Positions 2,667 through 25,763 of a stretch of DNA of 32,550 nucleotides are shown here, piece after piece. The stretch lies in assembly GCA_965372055.1 (NCBI GenBank), contig CBDVAV010000001.1, positions 1 to 32,550 on the forward strand. The letters are read 5' to 3'. The number at the start of each line of letters is the position of its first letter. Position 1 is the first letter of the stretch. Made by a program: the position numbers and the translations under genes. A model generated the notes under the pieces. That model was given only the letters and a program-made list of their open reading frames with translations. It did not search any database and was not told the origin of the DNA. Source of the stretch: an uncultured bacterium (lineage in GTDB: Bacteria > Bacteroidota > Bacteroidia > Cytophagales > Cyclobacteriaceae).

Positions 2667-2771
2667 TATATCATATATGTTTATGATGGCAATATATAGA
2701 AGGTGATGCAATTAAATACTAGAAGTATAGTTAAGAAGTGTTAACAATAGTTAATAACAGTTAAACTGGAT

Positions 2772-2807
2772 TGTCTGAAACTGAATTAGAGGATTTGTAC
2801 AAGTAGG
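2772..2807 (+). pseudogene. Displaced copy of the last 11 codons plus stop of the creatininase-family gene
   Basis: tgtctgaaactgaattagaggatttgtacaagtagg matches 1168-1203 (tgtccgaaactgagttggaggatttgtacgagtagg). It encodes LSETELEDLYK* against LSETELEDLYE*. Confidence 0.75.
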
Positions 2808-2886
2808 AAGGGTATAGGTTTTAATACAATGTTTATAAGGATTTATACTTAGGAAATAAATCTTCACTAATATAGCAGCACACCAC

Positions 2887-2929
2887 AAGTCATTCCTGCC
2901 CCGTAATAAATACGGGGCAGGAATGACTT
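2887..2929. repeat. Perfect 19-bp-stem hairpin, an extended member of the gtcattcctgc...gcaggaatgac palindromic repeat family
   Basis: aagtcattcctgccccgta - ataaa - tacggggcaggaatgactt. The arms are exact reverse complements. No flanking T-run on either strand. Confidence 0.9.
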
Positions 2930-3037
2930 CAGGAGAAGCTGTGGAGTTTCTTAAACATTCCTTCATTATACTACTCATTTCTCCATATTTTACTTTGGAT
3001 CTCAGGTCAACTGATAACAAATGCAACCCATGTACTT

Positions 3038-5431
3038 CTAGCGACTCAGCCACACTTTCATCTCCTCGCTGGCCTCCAATTTTTCTATCTCTGCCCGGGC
3101 CTTTTCTACTTGTTCCCGACCTTGCTGAATGATCTGTTGAAATCTGGGGTCATCCCACAGGCTTTCCAAAGGTGGATCATACAAGGCGAAATCGTGCAGC
3201 CCATCACCAAAGCCAAAATTTCCATAATGTTCCAGCCATTTCAAAGCCTCATCCTTGTCACCTAGTTGGGCATATACTTTGGCCAGTTCGTAGCCAATTC
3301 CTTTTGCCCACTGTCTTTTCCTGGCCACTACTTCCAGCAGGAAGTCCCTGATCTCGATCAAGTTTTGATGGGCCTCTTCCTCTTTTCCATTTTGTTTTAA
3401 TACATAACTGTACATGTGTTTATCGTTATACCCTTGAATTCTAATTACATCAGGTGAGCTGTCGTACAATTGTCTAAAATACTTTTCCGATTCATGGTAG
3501 TTGCCATTCATCATATTAATGATGGCCAGATGATACAGTACCTGGCCTTCAGGATTGATAGCTTTCAATTTTTCAGCAATGGGCAGGTTCTGTTTAAATT
3601 TTCCCTGGCAACGGTTAGTGTGAGCTAATCCTCCATAAGCTAGCACATGATCAGGTTGAATCTTTATCACTTCATTAAAATAATGCTCCGCTTTTTCGTA
3701 GTCTCCAACACTTAAGTAAAGCCGTGCGAATTGCATATAAAGTTCTGTTAACTCAGATCCTTTGATCAATGGCGAGGCTCTTACCAGCAATCTGAAGCGA
3801 ACTGAAAAATTATTTTCTAGGAAGTGAATATCGGCCAGTTGTAACATGGCCTCAGTATAGTTAGGGTTGATTTCCAGCGCCTGATCTAGGTCTTCCAGGG
3901 CTTGGGTTTTGGAGTTGGCAATCCAGTAGTAGTACTGACCTCGGAGGGTATAGGCCTCAGCAAGATTAGGATCTATTTCCAGTGCCCGGTTGCAAAGCAT
4001 CAACATGGAATCCAGTGGTTGCTCATCCAGGTATTCCCTAAAAAAATTTCTATCATAATAAACTTCGGCCAAACCGGCATAGGCCAGCGCAAAATTGGGA
4101 TCAGCTTCCAGGGCACGACGATACAGGCTTACTGCATTTTCGTAATCCTGGTTTTCGGTCTTGTTGTGGTATCGCTTGGCATATTGCTTTCCCCTTATAT
4201 AATATTCGTATGCTTCAGTGCTTTCCGTTGCCAAGGTTGTTAATCCTGATACTTCTTCTGGGGATATCTTTAATTTCAGTTGACTCACAATCTCTTCAGC
4301 TATCTTTCTTTGAATATCAAAAATACCCCGCGTGGTGTATTCTGAAGTGAAGTTATCTGCCCAAATATGCCTGTCATCATCTGTACTTATTAGCTGTGCG
4401 GTAATCATTATCTGGTCTTCTGATTTACGTACACTTCCTACTAATAAGTAACTTACTTTCAACTCTGTACCTATTTCATTAGCTGGTTTTTTCGTGTCCC
4501 GGTATTGTTCCACGGAGGTTCTTGAAATTACCCTTAGTTCTCCCATCTTCTGTAAGTTTGTAAGGATGTCTTCCATTACTCCATCAGCGAAATATTGTTG
4601 GTCTCCTTGCGGGCTCATGTCCGCAAAAGGAATTACTGCAATTGATTTATCAATTATCTTTACTGTTTCACTATCCTTTTGGTTATTATAAAAGAAATAA
4701 GCTAAAGCAAGGATTAGAATTACACCTATGGAAGCTAAAAGGATTTTGCTCTTGTTTTTTGGTTTTGATTCTATTGAAGGAGAAGCGATTGTAGATGTTG
4801 ATTGGACTCCTTCTTTTTCAATCTTGAAAGAATCTCCAATTTTCAGTCCTGATACTATCTCTTGTATAGCATTTGCTACTTTGTTGATTTGATTGCGATA
4901 ATTAGTCCTATTCAGATTATCTTCTTTGTTGTCCTCCGGTTTGAGTGGTCTGTTTACCCCTGGCTCTTGATATACAAAATCAATTGATCTTAAAAAGCCA
5001 ACCTCATCTTCTACTAACTGTCTATCTGCATCACTAATATCATGAATCCTTATAGGTAAAACCCTACTTGCAGTATTGCCATTTGGAAGTTCTACTTTCA
5101 AACCATGATCGTCAGCTTCCGCCATTTTATTGAATGCCAAAAATTCATTAGTCCAGGCGAAGCTATTGGGGTCACAGTAGGTTTTAGATATGATGGGGAT
5201 AAAGATTAAACACTTTAATTTCTTAGCTAAGGAATCATCTACATCATGAGTTTCCAGTAAACCATCGTATGGGTTTTCATCAAAATAGATGGAGATGTAT
5301 TCTTTGAAAGTAGCTTCAATCTCACTCTTTAATGTATTGATAAACTCTGTAACCCATCCATCCAGTTTGTTATCCTTCTGGCGATAACTGATGAAGATGT
5401 CATATTCGTAGCCTGGGATAATTGAAGGCAT
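3038..5431 (-). CDS. TIR domain - single TM - TolB-N-like module - TPR repeat protein (paralog 1)
   Basis: 797-aa ORF. The N-terminus YDIFISYRQKDN...LIFIPIISKTYCDPNSFAWTNEFLAF is TIR-like. One hydrophobic helix ILLASIGVILILALAYFFY spans aa 230-248 (nt 4688-4744). KSIAVIPFADMSPQGDQQYFADGVMEDILTNL follows, then ~400 aa of TPR-like repeats. Confidence 0.85.
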   Translation of the reverse strand: MPSIIPGYEYDIFISYRQKDNKLDGWVTEFINTLKSEIEATFKEYISIYFDENPYDGLLETHDVDDSLAKKLKCLIFIPIISKTYCDPNSFAWTNEFLAFNKMAEADDHGLKVELPNGNTASRVLPIRIHDISDADRQLVEDEVGFLRSIDFVYQEPGVNRPLKPEDNKEDNLNRTNYRNQINKVANAIQEIVSGLKIGDSFKIEKEGVQSTSTIASPSIESKPKNKSKILLASIGVILILALAYFFYNNQKDSETVKIIDKSIAVIPFADMSPQGDQQYFADGVMEDILTNLQKMGELRVISRTSVEQYRDTKKPANEIGTELKVSYLLVGSVRKSEDQIMITAQLISTDDDRHIWADNFTSEYTTRGIFDIQRKIAEEIVSQLKLKISPEEVSGLTTLATESTEAYEYYIRGKQYAKRYHNKTENQDYENAVSLYRRALEADPNFALAYAGLAEVYYDRNFFREYLDEQPLDSMLMLCNRALEIDPNLAEAYTLRGQYYYWIANSKTQALEDLDQALEINPNYTEAMLQLADIHFLENNFSVRFRLLVRASPLIKGSELTELYMQFARLYLSVGDYEKAEHYFNEVIKIQPDHVLAYGGLAHTNRCQGKFKQNLPIAEKLKAINPEGQVLYHLAIINMMNGNYHESEKYFRQLYDSSPDVIRIQGYNDKHMYSYVLKQNGKEEEAHQNLIEIRDFLLEVVARKRQWAKGIGYELAKVYAQLGDKDEALKWLEHYGNFGFGDGLHDFALYDPPLESLWDDPRFQQIIQQGREQVEKARAEIEKLEASEEMKVWLSR

Positions 5432-5566: not shown

Positions 5567-6889
5567 ATGGAGAATAAAACAAATAATATCACGTTGAATC
5601 AATTGCCAAATGGAAACAGGAGAGATTTTGTAAAAAAGAGTGGCCTGGCTGCTGCATCTTTAATTGTTGCCCCTTTTTTGACAAATGCTAAACAACAGCA
5701 CCCTGTACTATGGAAGCAGTTTCCCGAAATAAACGATGATGATTACCTGTGGAAATGGGTACAGAATTCATACACGGTTTCGTCAACGGTATCAAATTTT
5801 AACAATGGATCTGTGAGCCCACAGCCCAAAGTGGTACAGGAAGTGTTTGAATTTTATAACCGGTTGTTCAATGAAACACCCTCACGCTACATGTGGAGCA
5901 GCCAAGATAAGGTAGAGTCCGTGAGAGAGAAACTGGCGGAGATTGGCGGCTGCGAGGCAGACGAGTTGGCAATTAACAGAAACACAACAGAGGCCATCAA
6001 TACTATAATTTGGGGATTGAACCTGAACCAGGGAGATGAAGTTGTACTCTCGGAACAAGATTATTCCACGGTAATGAAAACCTGGGAGCAGTAGGAAAAA
6101 AGGCATGGCATTGTCTTAAAATATATCTCCTTTGACCTTCCGGTGGAAGATGAAACCCTGATTGTGAATACTTATGTCGCTGCAGTAACTTCAAAGACCA
6201 AGGTAGTGACCATCACCCATGTGAACAACCTCAACGGTAATGTTATGCCAGTGAAAGCCATCGCTGATGCGGTAAAAAAGAAAAACCCCAAAGTACAGGT
6301 GCTGGTGGATGGTGCCCATGCATTCGCCCACATCGATTTTAATATCTCCGACCTCAATTGCGAATTTTATGGGGCCAGTTTGCACAAATGGTTGTGTGCC
6401 CCATTCGGGACGGGATTATTATATATTAAGAGAAGTGTGATAAAAGATATCTGGCCTTTGTTTCCTTATATGGATCCCCAATCAGGCGATATCAGGAAGT
6501 TTGAAACTTTAGGCACACGCATGTTACCGGCAGAACTTTCCATTGCCAGGGCCTTAGATTTCCAGGAAACCATCCAGATAAAGCGCAAAGAGAAACGATT
6601 GCGCTACTTAAAAGATTATTGGATCCAAAGAGTGGCCGAGATACCCAATGTGGTAGTAAAAACTTCCATGAAACCGGAATTTTCCTGTGCTTTGGGATCT
6701 TTTTCCCTCAAAAATATGGATCATGGTGAATTAAGTATCCGACTTTTAAAAGAGTATCATATTCACACTACCTACAAAGCAGACAAGCACAAGAAGTTTG
6801 AAGGAATGAGGATCACCCCTCATGTTTATACCAGGATCTCTGAATTGGATAGATTGGTGAAGGGCATAAAGGAGTTGGCTAAAGTCTGA
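5567..6889 (+). pseudogene. Class-V (isopenicillin-N-epimerase / cysteine-desulfurase-like) PLP aminotransferase with a Tat signal, interrupted by one in-frame TAG at 6092-6094
   Basis: ORFs 5567..6094 and 6143..6889 are in the same frame. Read-through gives ..TWEQ*EKRHGIVLKYISFDLPVEDETL.. The N-terminus is NRRDFVKKSGLAAASLIVAPF, and an ASLHKW PLP-lysine context is present. Confidence 0.8.
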
Positions 6890-7440: not shown

Positions 7441-10026
7441 TTACAAATCCTCAGGCTCAGGAAAGTTATAGGTGGCAACCAGTGCCATAACTTCTGCTTT
7501 CTTTTTTTTCTGTTTGGTAACTAGTTCCTTGAAACGGGGGATTTCTCTAATATTATCGTAGAAGGATTCTGAAAAAGGATCTAAATATCCATTGTCTATT
7601 GCTTTTCCCATCCAGGATAATGCTTCTTCTTGTTGATCAAATAAAGCATAATATAAAGCCAACTGGGCCATTATGTTGTTATCTTCAATTAAAATTGGGT
7701 TATTGTCATATCTTTCAAAAAAATTGTCAATTCGATCCTCGCAAATTGTTTGAGATTCCTGTGTTTTCCCTGTTTTTAAATAACTGTCTGCTACAAAATT
7801 GTAGGTTCCGTGCCAATGATCGGGAGTGTCCATCAAATATCTTATTGAATCTTTATTCAATTCTTCGTAATAGTCCGTAACATCCTGATATCTCCCCATC
7901 ATCCATAGACTAGTTATTTTTCTTAGATGCAATGAGGAACTATCCCTATTTAATTCAAATAGGTTTTCAGATATTTCAAGATATTTCTCAATATTCATCA
8001 ACTTCCGATATACCCTATTAATGGTGCTTAGATTCCCAGACGTTTTACCGAATTCAAGATCTTTTTCTAGATAGATCTGCGCAGTTTCATAATTACCTAA
8101 ATCCACATGCATCTGCCCAATAATATGAATTGCATGGACTCTGTGTAACGAAAGCTGTTTTTTTATTGCTTCCATGCTGCCTTTAAAATCTCCAACTGTT
8201 AAAGACCAGCTTTGTAAGTTGTGCAGAGCAGCCAGATAGTTGGGATTTATTGATAAGGTTTTTTCATAATACTTTAAAGCCTCCTTAATTCTTCCTTCAA
8301 TTTGACTAGTAACCGCTAGAGCTTTATAGCACTCTGCACACTGATTATCTAGTTCTAATCCCAAATTAGCATATGCTTTTGCTGAGTCGATCCAGTTATG
8401 AGGATAATTATATTGAAACCATCTTTGCATGAAAGCGTTTGCCAGCCCACCATAAGCAGCTGCATATTTTGGATCTTTTTGTACGGCAAGATTTAACTGT
8501 TCGATGCCAAGTTCATTAGACGTCAGGTTATATTGTCGATATAGCTGTCTGCCTCTTTGAAAATGCTCATAGGCTTCTATGTTTTCTGTTTGAGCCTTAG
8601 TGATGAGGGCCACCTGCTGTGGTACTATCTTCAACTTCAATTCTCCTACAATATTTTCAGCAATTTTTCTTTGGATTTCAAATAGACTTTTTGCCGCATA
8701 ATCAGAAGTAAAATTATCTGCCCAAATGTGGCTGTCATCTCTGGTATTAATCAACTGGGCTGTAATCATAATTTGATTGGCAGCTTTTCGTACACTTCCT
8801 TCCAACAAGTAACTGACATTTAGTTCATCACCAATTACAGGGGCAGATTTGTCGGTATTTCTATATTGTTCGACCGACGTTCTGGAAATTACTCTCAATT
8901 CGCCCATTCTTTGCAACTGTGTAAGTATATCCTCCATTACCCCATCAGCAAAGTATTGCTGGTCTTTGTCATCGCTCAAATTGGTAAATGGAATGACAGC
9001 TATTGATTTGTCAATTTCTTCAGATACTACTTGTTCAGTACTGCTTTGAGGATAGATCATGAACAAAGCCACTACTGTAACTACAAGGAGTAAAATAAAG
9101 GTATTACTGGTTAGTGGTTTTTTTTGGGCATCAGTAAAGGGATTATCCCTTGATGCTGCTGAACCTGTTTTAATAAACCCCTGTGGACTTCTCTCAAACA
9201 ACCATGCCATGAGGATTGAAATGGGAAAAAGGATTATCAAAATAAATGGAACTATCTGCAACATGTTTTGGGGCAAGCCAATCACCCCGGCACCTTTCCA
9301 AATAGCTATTGAAATCAATAGATAAACTAAACTAACCCTTAATACATTCCTGCGCTTCAATTCTGAAGTTACTTGTGTTTTCTTTGGTGTTGGTGTTTCT
9401 TTTTCTCCAGGATCAGATTCTTCCCATGACTCTGCTGTTTTAATCCCTGATATTATCTCCTGTATGGCATTGGCAACTTTGTTAATTTGGTTACGATAAT
9501 TAGTCTTATTTAGATTATCCTCTTTGCTGTCCTCTGGTTTTAAAGGCCTGTTTACTCCTGCCTCTTGGTACACAAAATCAATTGATCTCAAAAACCCTAT
9601 TTCATCCTCAACTAGTTTTTTATCTGCATCATCTATATCATGTATCCTGATTGGTAGTACCCTGTTTGCAGTATTGCCATTGGGTAGGTTTACTTTTAAG
9701 CCATGTTCATCATTAGCTGCCAATTTATTGAACGCCAGAAACTCATTGGTCCAGGCGAAACTGTTTGGATCGCAATAGGTTTTGGAAATGATGGGAATGA
9801 AGATCAAGCACTTTAGTTTTTTGGCCAAAGAATCATCAACATCATGGGTTTCTCCTAATCCATCAAAAGGGTTTTCATCGAAGTAAATTGAGATGTCTTC
9901 TTTGAAGGTAGCTTTAATCTCCCGGTTCAGGCTTTCCACAAACTCAGTTACCCAGCCATCTTGGTTATCATTCTGTCGATAACTGATGAAAATATCATAT
10001 TCGTAGCTTGGGATGATTGAGGGCAT
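7441..10026 (-). CDS. TIR domain - 3 TM - TolB-N-like module - TPR repeat protein (paralog 2)
   Basis: 861-aa ORF. The first ~200 aa are nearly identical to paralog 1. Three hydrophobic segments lie at about aa 228-249, 257-277 and 309-326. KSIAVIPFTNLSDDKDQQYFADGVMEDILTQL follows, then a divergent TPR-like C-terminus. Confidence 0.85.
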   Translation of the reverse strand: MPSIIPSYEYDIFISYRQNDNQDGWVTEFVESLNREIKATFKEDISIYFDENPFDGLGETHDVDDSLAKKLKCLIFIPIISKTYCDPNSFAWTNEFLAFNKLAANDEHGLKVNLPNGNTANRVLPIRIHDIDDADKKLVEDEIGFLRSIDFVYQEAGVNRPLKPEDSKEDNLNKTNYRNQINKVANAIQEIISGIKTAESWEESDPGEKETPTPKKTQVTSELKRRNVLRVSLVYLLISIAIWKGAGVIGLPQNMLQIVPFILIILFPISILMAWLFERSPQGFIKTGSAASRDNPFTDAQKKPLTSNTFILLLVVTVVALFMIYPQSSTEQVVSEEIDKSIAVIPFTNLSDDKDQQYFADGVMEDILTQLQRMGELRVISRTSVEQYRNTDKSAPVIGDELNVSYLLEGSVRKAANQIMITAQLINTRDDSHIWADNFTSDYAAKSLFEIQRKIAENIVGELKLKIVPQQVALITKAQTENIEAYEHFQRGRQLYRQYNLTSNELGIEQLNLAVQKDPKYAAAYGGLANAFMQRWFQYNYPHNWIDSAKAYANLGLELDNQCAECYKALAVTSQIEGRIKEALKYYEKTLSINPNYLAALHNLQSWSLTVGDFKGSMEAIKKQLSLHRVHAIHIIGQMHVDLGNYETAQIYLEKDLEFGKTSGNLSTINRVYRKLMNIEKYLEISENLFELNRDSSSLHLRKITSLWMMGRYQDVTDYYEELNKDSIRYLMDTPDHWHGTYNFVADSYLKTGKTQESQTICEDRIDNFFERYDNNPILIEDNNIMAQLALYYALFDQQEEALSWMGKAIDNGYLDPFSESFYDNIREIPRFKELVTKQKKKKAEVMALVATYNFPEPEDL

Positions 10027-10123
10027 TATGGATTTGGTTTAAGCCTTGAATTTAGTGATTTCTAAGCAATGATGCACTAATAGTGAAATGTGCCTTGAAA
10101 GTTAATAGAGGTCTATTTCAAAA

Positions 10124-10212
10124 TTACATTACAATACAGAAAGTGAATTACAATTCCATTGGGCACCTAATCGTGGGTAATTTCTCTAGTGTTTTAGCCT
10201 CTTTGGTGATGG
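10124..10212 (+). repeat. Intergenic element R, copy 1
   Basis: ttacattacaatacagaaagtgaattaca..gcacctaatcgtgggtaatttctctagtgttttagcc. The conserved blocks are shared with R2-R4. Confidence 0.85.
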
Positions 10213-10288
10213 TTACCCCATTGCATATGGTTTTAATACGTTGTAATTTTCCACACATACTTGGACTGAATTCCTACATTTTGTTGAA

Positions 10289-10858: not shown

Positions 10859-10922
10859 CAGTAGAAAGGCATTTAGGGGTTCAAACCGGTCAACCCTGAT
10901 TCAAGGATCATTTATTAACAAA

Positions 10923-11008
10923 ATACATTCCAATACAGAAAGTGAATTACACTTATGGTCTGCACCTAATCGGTGGTAATTTCTCCAGTGTTTTCGCCCA
11001 TGTGATTG
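10923..11008 (+). repeat. Intergenic element R, copy 2
   Basis: atacattccaatacagaaagtgaattacac..gcacctaatcggtggtaatttctccagtgttttcgcc. Confidence 0.85.
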
Positions 11009-11051
11009 TTATGTGGATTGATGCTTGGATTGAATATGTTTAGAACCAATC

Positions 11052-12845
11052 CTATTGTTTTAGAGAAAACCTAGGCATGGACTTTAATTTATTAGGATCA
11101 ATTCCTGCTTCAATTAATCGTGCTTTAAAATTTGGGGCTGCATCAATATCAAATGGGATATAGTACGAAAACCGAAATCCCATTTTTTCAAAAAAACGTT
11201 TATAGTAATTTTTTTCTGATAACTGATTATCAAATTTAGATATAAGGTTGTTGGCAGTTTCTACTTCCCCTAATTCCCAATATATCCAAACCACTCGAAG
11301 AAATTGCCAACTTTCATAATCAAGATTATCCAGGTCAATTTGTGGATCAAAAACCTGACCTAACAAAGCTTTGCCAAAATTGATTGCTATCACATCACTT
11401 GAGTTTTTAAGGCTATCTGCAATTAACTTACTCTCACCCATCATTAACCTTAACAGGAGCCTAGATGATCGGGCATAATCGTTATTGCTGGTAATGCCAA
11501 GATTTTCTGCTTTATCTAAAACATTCTTGGCCTCTGATAAATTACCTGAATGAATGTAGATATTTGCAAAGTAAAGATGTATAAATGGGTTATACGGATC
11601 ATTAGTAATTTCTTTATTTAAGATACTAAATACTCCCTCTTGACCAATTTTTAAATATATGAAATCATTTACAAATTGAGAGGTTATTAAATAAGATGGC
11701 TTATAGTTAGAAATAAAATCAGACGCTATCTGTGGTATATCAGACCAATCATTCAGATGGATATGTAGAGTAATATTTAAAATTAATTGAATTGCTTCAT
11801 CACGAATGAAACTGATAGCATATCTATAGTTACTTATTTGTAACTCTATTGCATTCTTAATTGAAAGATCTACATCCTCAGGCCCTGGCATGGTATAATA
11901 AACATAATGATTATAAGCATCAGCCTTTAAATAGTATGCAATACCTATTGTTGAATCCAATGCTAATGCCTTATCCAGAAACTCGTTTGCCTTCCATAGG
12001 GTAAATGTTCTTGGATAAATATTATGAAAATCGTTAAACAATTTTTTTCCTCTTAGAAGGTATTGATAAGCTTCAATATTCTTTGTGCCCGCTACAGCAA
12101 GATTTTCTCTTGCACTATCATCTAAAATGATATTTAAGGCTCGAGCAATTTTATTGGCTATTTCTGTCTGGACTTCAAATAATTCATCATACTTACGATT
12201 AAAGGTTTCAGACCAAATGTGTACATCATCATTTGCCCTTATTAATTGTGTTGTTATTCTCAAATTGTCATCAATTTTTCTTACCGATCCTTCAAGAACG
12301 TAATTTACATTTAAAGTATCGGCCAGTTTTTTAATTGTCAGCCCTTTACCTTTAAATGCAAATGATGAGCTCTTCCCTCTTAACTCTAGTTCTTCAACCT
12401 GGAATAAACTGTTAAGGATCTCCTCGCTCAAGCCATCCGAAAACCATTCCTGATCCTTATCTGGAGACATATCATCAAAAGGCATAACAGCAATAGATTT
12501 TTCCGATGCAATAACATTTTGATTAGCAATTTCAACCTCAACATCTTCAGATTGAATTAGGACATTAACAACAAAGACAGAAGCTAACAAAAGAATAATG
12601 GCATGCAATAAAAGCTCTCGTTGCTGTATGTTCCGTGATTCTGATTTTCCATGAAACCATGCATAAATCAATACAGCAGGCAAGCCGAAAATGGCAATTA
12701 TTATAAATATGTCAAAAATCTTAGCATTCCAGCCATATTTTTCAACAAAAAAATTGAGGGCCTCAATTAATACCCAACCACCACCCAAGTAGATAACCAG
12801 TGTTTGTTGTATTTTACGTTCTTTTAATTGATGAACAAAGGGCAT
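11052..12845 (-). CDS. 3 TM - TolB-N-like module - TPR-like repeat protein without a TIR domain (paralog 3)
   Basis: 597-aa ORF. The N-terminal 3-TM module ends in YAWFHGKSE (paralog 2 has MAWLFERSP). KSIAVMPFDDMSPDKDQEWFSDGLSEEILNSL follows, then a helical-repeat C-terminus. Confidence 0.8.
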   Translation of the reverse strand: MPFVHQLKERKIQQTLVIYLGGGWVLIEALNFFVEKYGWNAKIFDIFIIIAIFGLPAVLIYAWFHGKSESRNIQQRELLLHAIILLLASVFVVNVLIQSEDVEVEIANQNVIASEKSIAVMPFDDMSPDKDQEWFSDGLSEEILNSLFQVEELELRGKSSSFAFKGKGLTIKKLADTLNVNYVLEGSVRKIDDNLRITTQLIRANDDVHIWSETFNRKYDELFEVQTEIANKIARALNIILDDSARENLAVAGTKNIEAYQYLLRGKKLFNDFHNIYPRTFTLWKANEFLDKALALDSTIGIAYYLKADAYNHYVYYTMPGPEDVDLSIKNAIELQISNYRYAISFIRDEAIQLILNITLHIHLNDWSDIPQIASDFISNYKPSYLITSQFVNDFIYLKIGQEGVFSILNKEITNDPYNPFIHLYFANIYIHSGNLSEAKNVLDKAENLGITSNNDYARSSRLLLRLMMGESKLIADSLKNSSDVIAINFGKALLGQVFDPQIDLDNLDYESWQFLRVVWIYWELGEVETANNLISKFDNQLSEKNYYKRFFEKMGFRFSYYIPFDIDAAPNFKARLIEAGIDPNKLKSMPRFSLKQ

Positions 12846-12926: not shown

Positions 12927-13010
12927 TTACATTACAATACAGAAAGTGAATTACACGTACGGATGCACCTAATCGAAAGTGATTTCTCCAGTGTATTCGC
13001 CTTTGAGGGT
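12927..13010 (+). repeat. Intergenic element R, copy 3
   Basis: ttacattacaatacagaaagtgaattacacgtacggatgcacctaatcgaaagtgatttctccagtgtattcgcc. Confidence 0.85.
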
Positions 13011-13014
13011 AAGC

Positions 13015-13581
13015 TTACTTTTTTGATTCTAATTCAGATATCCAATTATTTAGTTTGTTAATTTTTATCTGAAGATCCCCCTTGCCCTGGACATGGTGTC
13101 TGGTTAACCAAAAGACCACACCCCCTATACTCAGTACCATGGATGATCCAAAAATTATTAATATTGTCAGCGTTATTTCAGGCATAATAAATTGCATCAT
13201 TCCAATTATAAATACAATGAGTCCTGGTATAAGTGGGAGAAGAGTCCACCAAAAAACACTTCTTTGCAGTTTGTATGTGTTTTGATACCAACCAATCCAG
13301 TACTTAAAATAGTCTAATGTTTCTTCCCTAGATGGCGGTTCATCCTTTCTCATCCTATTTCTAATAATGTATAGAATAATATACAGGGTTCCTGTTGCAA
13401 TAAGTATAGAACCGATTGGTAATAAAATCGGTGCATCCTTGAATAAGTATGCATAAAAGAGGAAAAAAATTATCAAGAATATTCCTGCTGATATTTCACG
13501 AGTGTTACTCTTTGATAAAGACTTTTTGAACTCGTCAGTTTCCTGAAACATCGCTGCTTCATCATTAATTAATCCATCCAT
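13015..13581 (-). CDS. Hypothetical membrane protein (about 4 TM)
   Basis: 188-aa ORF with hydrophobic segments such as GIFLIIFFLFYAYLF and LLPLIPGLIVFIIGMMQFI. No recognisable family. Confidence 0.55.
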   Translation of the reverse strand: MDGLINDEAAMFQETDEFKKSLSKSNTREISAGIFLIIFFLFYAYLFKDAPILLPIGSILIATGTLYIILYIIRNRMRKDEPPSREETLDYFKYWIGWYQNTYKLQRSVFWWTLLPLIPGLIVFIIGMMQFIMPEITLTILIIFGSSMVLSIGGVVFWLTRHHVQGKGDLQIKINKLNNWISELESKK

Positions 13582-16865: not shown

Positions 16866-18974
16866 ATGAAAAGCTTTAGAACTGAAATTGAAAACCCCGA
16901 AGTTGAAAAAGACATTATTGAATTAGAGAAGAAAATTTATCAATTCAATAATAAAAAAATTGATGAAGAAAAATTCAGGGGTCTTAGGTTAGCAAGAGGA
17001 ATTTATGGTCAAAGACAACCTGGAGTGCAAATGATCAGGATCAAACTTCCTTACGGAAAACTGACAGCAGACCAAATGATACGGATTGCTGATGTCTGTG
17101 ATGAATATTCCAATGGAAATCTCCATACTACCACCAGACAAGATATTCAAATACATTATGTAAGTCTTGATAAAACCCCCGAATTATGGGCAAAACTAGA
17201 GAAAGATGATATTAGCTTAAGAGAAGCTTGTGGAAATACTGTCCGTAATATTACAGCTTCGGCCATTGCTGGAATTGACCCTAATGAACTTTTTGATGTT
17301 ACCCCGTATGCACAAGGGTTTTTTGAATATTTCTTAAGAAACCCCATTTGTCAGGATTTGGGAAGAAAATTCAAAATATCATTTTCATCAAGCGATGATG
17401 ATTCTGCCTTCACATTTATGCACGACATCGGGTTTATTCCCCGGTTGAAAAAAGTTGGAACAGAAGAGGTCAGGGGATTTAAGGTGTTGATAGGTGGAGG
17501 TTTGGGGTCAAGGCCTCTTGTGGCAAAGGTTGCCCATCACTTTCTGCCTGATAGTGAAATTTTACCATTTACTGAATCTGTTTTGAAGGTCTTCGATCGT
17601 TATGGTGAACGGAAACGTAGAAACCGTGCCAGGTTAAAATTCTTGCTTGAAGATATTGGGCTTGATGTGTTATTGAGATTGGCAAAAGTAGAAAGGCCCA
17701 GCAGTGCTTCCGAAATCTTTCCATTTGAAACAGTAGAGAAGGTCTTCCAAACACCTGAAAAAAGAAGTATTGGAGAGGTTACAGTGACCAATAAGTCCAA
17801 ATATAAAGATTGGGTTACGACCAATACATTTGAACAGAAGCAAAAGGGGTTTATGGGTATTAAAATACGGTTGTTGATTGGTAATATAGATACCATGCGA
17901 TTTAGAAAACTTGCCAAGCTGGTTAAGCTATATGCTGGAAATGATCTGCGGGTCACCATCAACCAAGGGTTGTTTATAAGGTTTGTGCCTAAGAAGTATC
18001 TACCTTATTTCTTTAATCAATTGGATGAATTGGGGCTTGCTGAGCCTGGTTTTGATAGTGTTTCTGACATTACTACCTGCCCGGGCACAGATACTTGCAA
18101 CCTGGGTATCTCAAGTAGCACCGGAATGACCCGCGAATTGGAGCAAATTCTAATGGAGGAATATCCAGAGTTGATCCATAATACTGCCCTAAAGATCAAG
18201 ATCAGCGGTTGTATGAATTCATGTGGACACCATTCAACAGCAAGTATTGGGTTGCATGGAAGCACTCTCCGTGTAAAAAACAAAGTAGTGCCAGCCATGT
18301 TGGTCCATCTTGGTGGTGGCCCATTAGGTGCCGGACAGGGTAGTATGGCTGAAAAATTAACAAAAATACCAAGCAAGAGAATCCCTGATGCTTTAAGGGT
18401 TTTGCTTGATGACTACCAGGAGAATGGCCAAAATGGAGAATATTTCAATGCCTATTATTTGAGACAAGGCAAGCTATATTTTTTAAACTTACTTCAGCCC
18501 TTCGCGGTCACTGGTAATTTAATGCCAACAGATTTTATTGATTGGGGCCACAGCGACAATTTTAAAACTGCGATAGGTATCGGTGAGTGTGCAGGAGTCA
18601 CCATAGATCTGGTAGCAACACTGTTTCTGGAAGTAGAAGAAAAACTTGATAATGCATTATCGTCCCTTCAGGATGAAGCTTATGCAGACTCTATATATTT
18701 TAGTTATGCTGCTTTCATTAGTGCTTCCAAGGCGATGTTGATCAGTGGGGGTATTGAGACCAATACTCATGCCGGAATTATTTCCTTGTTTGATGAAACA
18801 TACGTGGATACCAACATAGTTTACATTGATGGGCAGTTCAGCAGCATGGTATTGAAAATGAAGAATACTGAACCAACTGGAAAGTTTGCCGAAGAATACC
18901 TGGCAGAAGCCATGGGATTTCATCAACAATTACAGAAAGCAAGAGAAAACCAATTGATCAATGAAAAGGGCTGA
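16866..18974 (+). CDS. Assimilatory sulfite reductase hemoprotein, NirA/Sir/CysI family, long (702 aa) form
   Basis: Siroheme-[4Fe-4S] cysteine clusters are present: TCPGTDTCNLG and KISGCMNSCGHH. There are duplicated nitrite/sulfite reductase ferredoxin-like halves and a ~140-aa C-terminal extension. Confidence 0.85.
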   Translation: MKSFRTEIENPEVEKDIIELEKKIYQFNNKKIDEEKFRGLRLARGIYGQRQPGVQMIRIKLPYGKLTADQMIRIADVCDEYSNGNLHTTTRQDIQIHYVSLDKTPELWAKLEKDDISLREACGNTVRNITASAIAGIDPNELFDVTPYAQGFFEYFLRNPICQDLGRKFKISFSSSDDDSAFTFMHDIGFIPRLKKVGTEEVRGFKVLIGGGLGSRPLVAKVAHHFLPDSEILPFTESVLKVFDRYGERKRRNRARLKFLLEDIGLDVLLRLAKVERPSSASEIFPFETVEKVFQTPEKRSIGEVTVTNKSKYKDWVTTNTFEQKQKGFMGIKIRLLIGNIDTMRFRKLAKLVKLYAGNDLRVTINQGLFIRFVPKKYLPYFFNQLDELGLAEPGFDSVSDITTCPGTDTCNLGISSSTGMTRELEQILMEEYPELIHNTALKIKISGCMNSCGHHSTASIGLHGSTLRVKNKVVPAMLVHLGGGPLGAGQGSMAEKLTKIPSKRIPDALRVLLDDYQENGQNGEYFNAYYLRQGKLYFLNLLQPFAVTGNLMPTDFIDWGHSDNFKTAIGIGECAGVTIDLVATLFLEVEEKLDNALSSLQDEAYADSIYFSYAAFISASKAMLISGGIETNTHAGIISLFDETYVDTNIVYIDGQFSSMVLKMKNTEPTGKFAEEYLAEAMGFHQQLQKARENQLINEKG

Positions 18975-22622: not shown

Positions 22623-24125
22623 CTATAATTCTTCGATTGTTTTAAAAACCTTACTTAAATAATGAATTATATCGGAAGCAATTAAAGCTTGCTCAGATAG
22701 TTCGAAGGCAGCAAGGTCCCCAGCTTTGCCGTGCAGGTAAACCCCCAATATTGCAGCTTTATCAGGAGCATAGCCCTGGGCTAGAAGTCCGGAAAGTATA
22801 CCTGTCAACACATCGCCACTGCCACCGGTTGCCATACCTGGATTGCCCGTATTATTAAAATATATTGAGCCGCCCGGTATTGAAATAGAAGTGTTTGCGC
22901 CCTTTAAAACAACGATTTGACCATGTTTGTCTGAAAATTCTTGTTGAGCATTTAGCCTTTCAAGGCTGTTATTTTGATCACCCAGCAATCTGTCAAATTC
23001 TCCGATATGGGGTGTGATAATTGAATTTACAGGCAATAGTTGGATCATCTCCCTGTTAGCAGCTAAAATATTGATGGCATCTGCATCAACGATCATTGGG
23101 TGCGGCCAATTTTGCAACAGTTCTGAAAAAGCCCTCCTGGTCCTGTCATCGGTACCTATTCCCGGTCCAATGGCAATAGTATTGAAATTTTCCAGATCAG
23201 GTAAGGATGAAAAGATATCTTCATCCCTATCCGTGGAAACCATGGCTTCAGGAACACCATTTTGTAATATTTGGTAACCGCAACGGGGGCTATGAATGGT
23301 TAACAATCCTGCTCCAGTCCTCATACAAGCCCGTCCTGCCAAAACTGCTGCACCCATTTTCCCATATCCTCCACTGATAAGCAATGCGCGGCCAAAATTC
23401 CCTTTATGGGAATGTTTTTCCCGTTTCCGGTACCAATTTTGGATCATCTGTTCTTCTGTAATGAAAAAATCACTTTCCTGTTTTTCGATAAAATTTTGAT
23501 CCAATCCAATATTCACTGTAGTCCAATTTCCAACATGGGCATGGTTCTCTTTCAGGAAAAAAGCCAGCTTCGGAAGCTGAAAAGAAACAGTGTGATCCGG
23601 GGTAACTATGGAATTACCTTGGGCTACATCATCACAAAACAAACCAGAAGCTATATCAATAGAAACTACTCTGTTAGGCTTTTGGTTAATAAAATCAATA
23701 ACTTCCGCGTAAAAGCCCTCAACTATTCTATTAAGGCCAGAGCCGAACAGCCCTTCAATTATGATATCCTCAGGATTAATTTCAGGCAAATCAGATTTAT
23801 TCCTGATTTCCCGAATTTCGGTTATTTTCCCCAACCTCCCAAGATTAATCTTAAAGTCTTCCGATCCTCCCTCACTTACCCTAACAACGTACACGGCAAC
23901 CTCATATCCCGCTTCAATCAATAGCCTTCCAATAGCAAGTCCATCGCCACCGTTATTTCCGGTTCCACAAAAGATGTTGATATTATTTTGATTCTCGAAG
24001 TTTTGTAAAAACCAGTTGATGAATGCAGTAGATGCATTTTCCATCAGATCAATAGAAGCGATTGGCAGGTTCTTTATCGTATATTGGTCTGCTTCCCTTA
24101 TTTTAGGAGCTGACAAGATTTTCAT
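22623..24125 (-). CDS. nnr: Bifunctional NAD(P)H-hydrate repair enzyme (epimerase + ADP-dependent dehydratase)
   Basis: 500 aa. The YjeF-N half has FCGTGNNGGDGLAIGR and the carbohydrate-kinase half has GNPGMATGGSGDVLTG. Confidence 0.9.
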   Translation of the reverse strand: MKILSAPKIREADQYTIKNLPIASIDLMENASTAFINWFLQNFENQNNINIFCGTGNNGGDGLAIGRLLIEAGYEVAVYVVRVSEGGSEDFKINLGRLGKITEIREIRNKSDLPEINPEDIIIEGLFGSGLNRIVEGFYAEVIDFINQKPNRVVSIDIASGLFCDDVAQGNSIVTPDHTVSFQLPKLAFFLKENHAHVGNWTTVNIGLDQNFIEKQESDFFITEEQMIQNWYRKREKHSHKGNFGRALLISGGYGKMGAAVLAGRACMRTGAGLLTIHSPRCGYQILQNGVPEAMVSTDRDEDIFSSLPDLENFNTIAIGPGIGTDDRTRRAFSELLQNWPHPMIVDADAINILAANREMIQLLPVNSIITPHIGEFDRLLGDQNNSLERLNAQQEFSDKHGQIVVLKGANTSISIPGGSIYFNNTGNPGMATGGSGDVLTGILSGLLAQGYAPDKAAILGVYLHGKAGDLAAFELSEQALIASDIIHYLSKVFKTIEEL

Positions 24126-24860: not shown

Positions 24861-25763
24861 ATGTACAATTTCACCTCCAGTAATCACCCGAATTTCTTTG
24901 GTGACAATAATATCAATCGACAGGCAAATTTAAGAAAAGACCACAAATGGGTTCTTAAACAGTTAAAAAATAATCAGACAGTAATAATCCCGGTAATAAA
25001 TTCACAGGTACTGATCAAGAACAGCGATCCACCTCAAATAGTTAATTTCAAAACAAACCAATTCCCAGATGCAAAGTTTGAAGACTTCATTTTGCTCGGC
25101 GAGTTTAATGGCCAAACTTATTTTACTATCTCACGAAAAAATTTTGACCTTCCAAATAATACTGAATTATATGATTTGAAGATGGTTGCTTCCTTGCTCG
25201 ATAGATCTAGCGCTGGGCTATTGGCCTTTGCCACGGGTATTGCCCATTGGCACGAAACCCACTTGTTTTGTGGAAAGTGTGGAAGTGAAACCATAGTTAA
25301 AGAAGCTGGGCACCAGCGAACCTGCAAAAACGAATCATGCCAAAGCAAGATCTTTCCTCGCACGGATCCTGCCATTATCACATTGGTTTTAAACAAGGAT
25401 GCTTGTTTATTGGGCCGAAATGATAGATGGCCAAAAGGGGTATATTCCACACTGGCCGGTTTTGTAGAACCTGGGGAAAGCCTTGAGGAAGCAGTTAAGC
25501 GGGAAGTAATGGAAGAAGCCGGGGTGATAATCAAAGAGACACAATACCATTCATCCCAGCCTTGGCCTTTCCCCTCGTCCATTATGTTGGGGTTTATTTC
25601 AATTGCAGAAAATCGTGAGCTAAATATAAATTATGATGAACTGGAGGATGCCAGGTGGTTTACAAAATATGAATTATTGGAAATGATTGAAAAGAAAACA
25701 GTTTACTTGCCCAATAAATTTTCAATTGCCAACAGGTTGATCACAGAGTGGCTTAATACTTAA
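24861..25763 (+). CDS. nudC: NAD(+) diphosphatase / NADH pyrophosphatase (Nudix, zinc ribbon)
   Basis: Zinc ribbon CGKCGSETIVKEAGHQRTCKNESC, Nudix box GFVEPGESLEEAVKREVMEEAGV, and SQPWPFPSS. Confidence 0.9.
   Translation: MYNFTSSNHPNFFGDNNINRQANLRKDHKWVLKQLKNNQTVIIPVINSQVLIKNSDPPQIVNFKTNQFPDAKFEDFILLGEFNGQTYFTISRKNFDLPNNTELYDLKMVASLLDRSSAGLLAFATGIAHWHETHLFCGKCGSETIVKEAGHQRTCKNESCQSKIFPRTDPAIITLVLNKDACLLGRNDRWPKGVYSTLAGFVEPGESLEEAVKREVMEEAGVIIKETQYHSSQPWPFPSSIMLGFISIAENRELNINYDELEDARWFTKYELLEMIEKKTVYLPNKFSIANRLITEWLNT

Follow-up and report, generated by a model that had tools for sequence, protein, structure and literature searches.

Two old paralogous TIR receptors of a Bacteroidota locus as probable members of a mosaic receptor family

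How can two neighbouring receptor genes resemble each other closely in some modules and hardly at all in others? We asked this of a window of 32,550 nucleotides (nt; positions 1 to 32,550 of contig CBDVAV010000001.1, assembly GCA_965372055.1, forward strand) from an uncultured bacterium of the Cyclobacteriaceae (Bacteroidota). On its minus strand, an open reading frame (ORF) at 7441-10026 translates into a receptor of 861 amino acids (aa), here P1, composed of a TIR domain, three transmembrane (TM) helices, a TolB_N-like subdomain and a TPR region; P1 has full-length orthologs in the family members P0001 and P0003-P0008. The ORF of P2 (797 aa; 3038-5431, minus strand) encodes the same succession of modules with a single TM helix. 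Both genes are probably old paralogs of a Bacteroidota family of mosaic receptors, built from a TIR domain, one or three TM helices and a CadC-like sensor, that were re-assorted by recombination and signal through TIR. Sequence comparison across the family shows mosaic genes, the modules of which have separate histories and have been re-assorted by recombination.

Block-wise divergence of P1 and P2

Pairwise alignment of P1 and P2 yields blocks of very different similarity. The N-terminal 195 aa are 86-87% identical in protein and 80% identical in nucleotides, and the TolB_N-like module (aa 337-470 in P1, 259-392 in P2) 75% and 71%, respectively. Amino acid identity is about 20% over the linker and last TM helix and 26-27% over the TPR region. 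An earlier note on this DNA had called the TIR and TolB_N-like modules near-identical, with almost every residue shared, and the TPR regions not alignable. The similarity of the two blocks is real, at 86% and 75%, but was overstated, and the TPR regions proved to be collinear homologs: BLASTP of the TPR parts alone gave 27% identity over 416 collinear columns (E=3e-23), and both C-termini carry the NCBIfam TPR_END_plus motif, which lies at 788-836 in P1. TPR regions homologous at similar identity, like uniform divergence along the whole length, would have spoken for plain old paralogs; the blocks diverge unevenly (86%, 75% and 27%).

Hydropathy places TM segments at aa 231-249, 258-276 and 306-324 of P1 and at aa 230-248 of P2 (4688-4744, minus strand), in agreement with the earlier count of three and one. 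The membrane module of P1 (aa 228-324; 9055-9345, minus strand) comprises a TM1-TM2 hairpin, a cytoplasmic loop and TM3. The basic residues ahead of TM1, read from the sequences as KRRNVLR in P1 and KPKNKSK in P2, fit a predicted topology with the TIR domain inside and the sensor outside in both proteins, so that the in/out topology appears to be kept, as the note had argued.

Synonymous and nonsynonymous changes were estimated according to Nei-Gojobori. Between P1 and P2, the proportion of synonymous differences (pS) is 0.71 in TIR, 0.84-0.85 in TolB_N and about 0.80 in TPR, and the nonsynonymous divergence (dN) is 0.076, 0.165 and 0.89. Since synonymous change is saturated or nearly so in all blocks, P1 and P2 are old copies without recent gene conversion. 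Their conserved blocks are kept by strong purifying selection, with a ratio of nonsynonymous to synonymous divergence (dN/dS) of about 0.03 in the TIR domain. Recent or ongoing conversion between the two genes, which would homogenise the TIR and TolB_N blocks by concerted evolution, could draw on their position on the same strand, with 2 kb between them, and on the synonymous codons at identical TIR residues, which differ slightly less often than expected at random (45% versus 57%, z=-3.3); in TolB_N and TPR this mismatch cannot be told from random. Such conversion is nevertheless extremely improbable, given pS values of 0.71 (TIR) and 0.85 (TolB_N), nucleotide identities of just 80% and 71%, a longest exact nucleotide match of 17 nt, and different TIR subtypes side by side in another gene array of the family (L046, see below).

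Separate histories of the TIR, TolB_N and TPR modules

The similarity of the modules among homologs follows no common pattern. Full-length orthologs of P1 are 36-75% identical to it in TPR but only 59-68% in TIR. P0001, the closest of them, shares 75% of the TPR residues (pS 0.39), whereas its TIR domain is of a different lineage (68% identity, pS 0.73) and is 96% identical to that of P0017, a paralog with an unrelated sensor. TIR domains 82-88% identical to that of P1 are found in P2 and in a dozen proteins with unrelated sensors (22-46% identity in TolB_N, 17-22% in TPR). Over 12,090 pairs, TIR identity and TolB_N identity are correlated with r=0.29 only.

Neighbour-joining trees with bootstrap, calculated separately for TIR, TolB_N and TPR, conflict at 95-100% bootstrap, and the phylogenetic incongruence between segments is significant. 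In the TIR tree, P0001 joins P0017 (100%) and a subtype A, which includes P1, P2 and others, is separated from the rest (100%). In the TPR tree, P0001 joins P1, P0017 joins P0018, and P2 groups with seven cyclase-bearing or output-less proteins, each at 100%. The TolB_N tree places P2 within the P1 clade, with the cyclase proteins P0121-P0131 split off at 95.5-99%.

These observations bear on another account of the locus, namely that P1 and P2 are plain old paralogs from one ancient duplication without any exchange, with modules that differ only in rate (slow TIR, fast TPR). Synonymous saturation or near-saturation of all P1/P2 blocks, the collinear TPR homology (E=3e-23) and the low dN/dS of TIR (about 0.03) would all agree with it. 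Rate alone, however, cannot place the TIR domain of P1 nearer to that of P2 (86%) and of proteins with unrelated sensors (85-88%) than to those of its own orthologs (59-68%), nor can it bring the TPR region of P2 about as close as, or closer than, its TolB_N module to the cyclase proteins (51-63% and 43-51%). Together with the clades in conflict at 95-100% bootstrap and the significant synonymous-site breakpoints given below, this makes plain paralogy very unlikely.

P2 itself is chimeric within its sensor. Its TIR domain (aa 1-200; 4832-5431, minus strand) is assigned to subtype A by its 86% identity to P1 and by the type A grouping, and its TolB_N-like subdomain (aa 259-392; 4256-4657, minus strand) is assigned to the P1 clade by identities and trees, being 74-81% identical to P1, P0002, P0010 and P0026. 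The one-TM linker between them is homologous to that of P0026, and the linker of P0010 has the same length. The TPR sensor (aa 393-797; 3041-4255, minus strand) matches P0121-P0129, proteins with PF00211 or without an output domain, at 51-63% identity along some 400 aa, whereas the TolB_N module shares only 43-51% of its residues with them. Because the TPR region groups with P0121-P0129 while TolB_N does not, P2 combines a P1-clade TolB_N with a TPR sensor of the cyclase/no-output lineage; identities, alignment and bootstrap place the junction near aa 392-405.

Exchange could be dated more directly on synonymous sites. P0001 (L044) and P0017 (L045) differ by a pS of 0.10-0.5 at codons 26-325, i.e., over TIR and three TM helices, with 85-98% nucleotide identity, whereas from about codon 330 pS rises to 0.7-0.87 and amino acid identity falls to 20-40%. 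P1 and P0001 show the reverse pattern (pS 0.7-0.93 at codons 75-260, 0.18-0.5 at codons 450-800), with a sliding-window breakpoint near aa 265-275. The maximum chi-square test (MaxChi) on synonymous codons was exceeded in 0 of 1000 permutations in six pairs of independent assemblies, including P1-P0001 and P0001-P0017. The other four pairs (L015/L024, L012/L025, L017/L029 and L016/L036) come from independent Bacteroidales metagenome-assembled genomes (MAGs). The breakpoint test on homologs, of the kind that the earlier note had suggested, was significant in these pairs. The best breakpoints follow residues about 89, 107, 183, 236, 330-344 and 451, and from this spread we conclude that the exchanged tracts vary in length and are not limited to domain borders. 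In our reading of the alignments, several tracts seem to end at conserved motifs such as KSIAV(L/I)PF. The shuffling of a conserved core and a diversified sensor that the note had envisaged therefore holds for the homologs, in which modules have separate histories, but not as an explanation of the P1/P2 similarity, which does not stem from recent exchange.

Type-A TIRs of P1, P2, P0011, P0014 and P0028 are 82-93% identical in protein and yet differ by pS 0.67-0.87, so that this subtype is ancient and slow-evolving. As candidate donors of the type-A TIR of P1, P2, P0011, P0014 and P0028 were rejected, all being saturated (pS 0.71-0.83). The pS between the TIR domains of P0001 and P0017 is 0.35, and for this reason replacement in the P0001 lineage is a simpler reading of the P1/P0001 exchange than replacement in the P1 lineage.

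Could the chimeras be artefacts of metagenome assembly, in which reads of paralogs were joined across conserved TIR or TolB_N sequence? Most homologs do come from short-read metagenome contigs or MAGs. The segments shared by P0001 and P0017, however, have 85-98% nucleotide identity and a pS of 0.35 rather than the approximately 100% identity of a mis-join; the signal recurs in at least six pairs of independent projects and, in protein trees, in more than 20 proteins, and exact matches between P1 and P2 do not exceed 17 nt. Mis-assembly as the general source of the mosaic pattern is therefore scarcely credible.

The modules are re-assorted by homologous recombination between paralogs, often neighbours in tandem arrays, and the 5' portion of one paralog has repeatedly become fused to the 3' portion of a second. 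The exchanged 5' tract differs in length and covers a part of TIR, all of it, TIR with the TM region, or TIR with both the TM region and TolB_N. In P2, type-A TIR, one TM helix and a P1-clade TolB_N are joined to a TPR region the nearest relatives of which carry adenylate cyclase or no output, and TIR together with TM1-2 was exchanged after the P1 lineage had split from that of its closest known ortholog. Head-to-tail arrays of family genes do occur, with six copies on L002 and five on L008; in the window itself, three members are found within 10 kb. The array on L046 (377-11044) consists of five same-strand genes, i.e., three TIR receptors of different subtypes, one receptor with a Guanylate_cyc output and a cut-off fifth gene, and is a natural setting for unequal crossing-over. 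The presence of different TIR subtypes in this one array also implies that there is no genome-wide homogenisation.

TIR output and CadC-like sensor

The N-terminal domain of P1 (aa 1-199; 9430-10026, minus strand; subtype A) is, according to its structural model, a divergent TIR fold missed by Pfam. An AlphaFold2 (AF2) model of this part (predicted local distance difference test, pLDDT, 86) retrieved TIR domains as all of the top 44 Foldseek matches in the PDB (probability 1.0, TM-score about 0.6), among them RUN1 (best, E=3e-5), SNC1, SARM1, BtpA, AbTir and Toll-like receptors, as expected for the flavodoxin-like fold of TIR. Pfam TIR_2 spans its whole profile at 19.9 bits, below the gathering threshold of 28, and 19 of 20 members likewise match it below the threshold. 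TIR is mentioned in none of the precomputed Pfam lists and source names of more than 200 family members. A full-length profile was discarded for TIR detection, being swamped by TPR matches. W92 and E95 are invariant in sets of 45 and of 20 sequences and lie on the helix at 90-105, after the third strand, with the spacing WxxE; they are candidate counterparts of the catalytic WxxxE. A conserved, family-specific extension at aa 150-199 is composed of a GVNRPL hairpin and a long C-terminal helix.

Among 8,000 candidates scored, more than 7,000 proteins belong to the family at E<1e-10, and the members named are from Cyclobacteriaceae, Chryseolinea and other Bacteroidota. Searches with aa 1-200 returned 1,080 clusters (50% identity) at E<=1e-3, 757 at 1e-10 and 496 at 1e-30; in the best 150 clusters the TIR domain almost always occupies residues 1-200 of proteins 250-1000 aa long. 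The collection shows few deep subtypes of TIR and hundreds of types of sensor.

The sensor of P1 consists of a TolB_N-like alpha/beta subdomain (aa 337-470; 8617-9018, minus strand) and a TPR solenoid (aa 471-861; 7444-8616, minus strand) with the C-terminal TPR_END motif, recognised by Pfam TPR matches. The AF2 model of the periplasmic part (pLDDT 90) shows both parts, first the alpha/beta subdomain and then the long TPR solenoid. Ranked by TM-score, the PDB structure that Foldseek matches best to it is the periplasmic sensor of CadC (0.60-0.65, root-mean-square deviation about 5 A; 3LY7, 3LY8, 3LY9 and 3LYA), in agreement with sub-threshold NCBIfam matches to CadC (NF007540, E=4e-8 to 4e-10), HilA and, in the TolB_N-like region, TolB (TIGR02800, E=1e-4); FlgO matches the same region at E=0.002. 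P1 thus has a CadC-type periplasmic sensor after the TM helix. No winged-helix DNA-binding output was found in P1 or P2, where TIR takes the N-terminus; winged helix-turn-helix and AraC domains were seen only in distant relatives.

Relatives carry diverse outputs on the same sensor chassis, including class III cyclase, Ser/Thr kinase, AraC, OmpR-type and BTAD domains, or none. PF00211 is present in P0088, P0099 and P0122-P0129, whereas P0121 lacks an output domain. A clade of TIR-bearing sensors encloses the cyclase protein P0088 (98-99.5% bootstrap). Judged by these domain arrangements, P1 and P2 belong to a large set of Bacteroidota receptors, each a single polypeptide that spans the membrane, in which outputs are interchangeable.

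A periplasmic ligand might be bound by the TPR/CadC-like sensor and alter the association of receptor chains across the membrane, and TIR domains brought together in this way could split NAD+ or produce a signal derived from ADP-ribose. The place of TIR on this sensor is taken in sister proteins by a class III cyclase domain. Such cyclases act as dimers, and self-association is required of them as it is of TIR NADases. It is this need, combined with the interchange of TIR and cyclase, that leads us to suggest association of TIR domains as the mechanism.

The sensor raises the question of selection, since the note had proposed diversifying selection and an immune-type family. In TIR, dN/dS is about 0.04-0.06 in unsaturated pairs; in TPR it ranges from 0.12 to 0.65 between orthologs. 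Neither pairwise comparison nor sliding windows of TPR orthologs gave dN/dS above 1 in the sensor at domain level. The codon-based sliding-window check that the note had suggested did recover the synonymous breakpoint between P1 and P0001, but its TPR peaks reach only about 0.8, and diversifying selection is not borne out.

An immune or non-self receptor repertoire, directed against phages or other bacteria, with diversifying TPR sensors and TIR as death or alarm effector, could still be argued from the invariant Glu of TIR, the hundreds of sensor variants on a constant TIR, the exchange of sequence within tandem arrays, which recalls plant TIR-NLR clusters, and the TPR windows with maxima of the ratio of nonsynonymous to synonymous differences (pN/pS) of about 0.75-0.85. 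Moreover, P0028 (L047, 3873-9538) adjoins genes for AbiEii, Fic and a HicB-like antitoxin, a toxin-antitoxin or defence-like setting unlike that of the window. We nevertheless regard this explanation as quite unlikely. PADLOC matched only an uncharacterised candidate (E=0.0019) and gave nothing for neighbouring genes (for a weak candidate match, see below), the window is housekeeping or of unknown function, and domain-level dN/dS nowhere exceeds 1. The sensor is periplasmic, whereas phage components appear in the cytoplasm, and the same chassis bears cyclase, Ser/Thr kinase, AraC and OmpR-type outputs, which is typical of environmental signalling. A bolder proposal, which we consider fairly unlikely, is a bacterial repertoire of Toll-like pattern receptors, in which hundreds of periplasmic TPR sensors on a constant, enzymatically active TIR would obtain new specificities by recombination among tandem paralogs, in the manner of plant TIR-NLR clusters, and in which an NAD+-derived messenger would be interchangeable with cyclic AMP (cAMP).

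Several points weigh against mosaic receptors with TIR signalling as the explanation of P1 and P2. For P1 and P2 alone, MaxChi on synonymous codon identity was exceeded in 28 of 1000 permutations, a marginal result that indicates weak heterogeneity. The comparison sequences are mostly metagenome assemblies, so that single chimeras may be artefacts. Sequence alone links the N-terminal domain only weakly to solved TIR structures (phmmer E=0.024; TIR-only PDB profile E=0.6), and comparison of folds was needed for this reason. NADase activity is putative, with the spacing WxxE instead of the usual WxxxE. Apart from the family genes, the window shows no synteny with the contigs that carry P0001, P0017, P0014, P0028 and P0011, and hence no conserved partner gene was found. 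A scan of genome contigs found no close relative of the window organism, only MAGs of Bacteroidales and Rikenellaceae with TIR domains 57-69% identical.

The locus and comparison with known systems

A third paralog, not mentioned in the earlier note, lies at 11052-12845 (minus strand). Translation and hydropathy of P3 (597 aa) indicate three TM helices, a TolB_N-like and a TPR-like region and only approximately 15 cytoplasmic residues, i.e., no TIR and no other output. It is 33% identical to P1 from TM2 through TolB_N (E=1e-34), and the P1-type membrane module is common to P3 and 107 of 156 family members. An output-less gene resembling P3 occurs on L048 (5508-7238).

An intergenic element of about 75-100 nt is present in three same-orientation copies (10114-10216, 10913-11015 and 12928-13018), where none are expected by chance. 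Its core is GTAATTCACTTTCTGTATTG(T/G)AATGTA, preceded by GGCGAAAACACTGGAGAAATTACC..CGATTAGGTGC. Two copies precede the starts of P1 and P3 by approximately 85-190 nt, and the third closely follows the end of P3; none was found upstream of P2. The element has no Rfam match and no stable fold (z=-0.6), and its core recurs once on L045 (4596-4613), downstream of P0017. The copies may represent a shared site of regulation or else a small repeat element.

About 110 nt past the P2 stop, two perfectly complementary 19-nt arms around a 5-nt loop (AAGTCATTCCTGCCCCGTA / TACGGGGCAGGAATGACTT; 2887-2929) form an inverted repeat that resembles a terminator and is located inside a doubtful ORF (2751-3053). 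Directly downstream of P2, 1239-2711 (minus strand) encodes a 490-aa protein whose C-terminal domain is of the retropepsin-like aspartyl protease type (Pfam E=1.5e-12) and which weakly matches the PADLOC candidate PDC-M08B (E=1e-5).

The remainder of the window is housekeeping, with genes for creatininase, a split class-V aminotransferase, sulfite reductase, siroheme synthesis, phosphoadenosine phosphosulfate (PAPS) reductase, Nnr, a NudC-like Nudix protein, isocitrate dehydrogenase and PanB. The aminotransferase lies between P2 and P1 as two plus-strand ORFs (5567-6094 and 6143-6889) that cover profile positions 3-107 and 129-335; the split reflects a frameshift, an interruption of the gene or a sequencing error. 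The sulfite/nitrite reductase (702 aa; 16866-18974, plus strand) weakly matches HEPN near its C-terminus (aa 591-644, E=1.4e-4); if real, this would be an unusual fusion. The NAD(P)HX repair protein Nnr (22623-24125, minus strand) and the NudC-like NADH pyrophosphatase (24861-25763, plus strand) are encoded at a distance of 12-15 kb from the TIR genes; the substrates of both are NAD-related nucleotides, but their proximity is probably coincidental.

TIR enzymes are already known, as is the shuffling of domains in signalling receptors, and bacterial TIR domains so far come mainly from cytoplasmic defence systems and secreted effectors. The literature searched contained no account of a TIR/TolB-like/TPR receptor. 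Novelty lies in the large, unannotated branch with TIR output that the CadC/TolB_N-TPR receptor chassis proves to have, and in the direct dating of module exchange, including the replacement of TIR by adenylate cyclase in some relatives. About 500-1000 clusters (50% identity) hold an unannotated TIR in the output slot of an ordinary transmembrane sensor, a slot in which it is interchangeable with adenylate cyclase. This suggests that TIR chemistry is a general signalling output controlled from outside the cell, and the dated recombination events show that bacterial receptor repertoires can be built by re-assorting modules.

With TIR NADases (AbTir, BtpA/TcpB and ThsB of Thoeris; RUN1, L6 and RPP1 of plants) the receptors share the TIR fold, and the invariant Trp and Glu on the helix after the third strand are candidate counterparts of theirs. 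The TIR of P1 and P2 is below the Pfam threshold, has the WxxE spacing and the extension at aa 150-199, and forms the N-terminal part of a receptor that anchors it to the membrane. No ThsA-like partner, as in Thoeris, is encoded near the P1 and P2 TIR genes. Plant TIR-NLR (TNL) clusters are alike in combining a conserved TIR with a variable repeat sensor, in their tandem arrays, their breakpoints and the incongruence of module trees, but here the product is a membrane receptor without an NB-ARC ATPase and with sensor dN/dS not above 1. Animal Toll-like receptors follow the same logic of an extracytoplasmic solenoid-repeat sensor, a TM helix and an intracellular TIR; in the family described here, however, the repeats are TPR instead of leucine-rich repeats and the polarity is inverted, with TIR at the N-terminus, and neither common descent of the architecture as a whole nor an immune role is supported.

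Further parallels are found among receptors with a similar sensor. CadC/ToxR-like one-component receptors such as CadC of E. coli (3LY7) likewise have a cytoplasmic N-terminal output, a TM helix and a periplasmic alpha/beta plus helical sensor. P1 and P2 differ from them by a TIR instead of a winged-helix DNA-binding output and by the extension of the helical part into a long TPR solenoid, and one of the two forms of the family has three TM helices. The TolB_N-TPR class III adenylate cyclases of Bacteroidota (compare TIGR04510) have the same chassis of TM, TolB_N and TPR and occur in the same array (L046). The output of P1 and P2 is TIR, so the signal is presumed to be NAD+-derived rather than cAMP.

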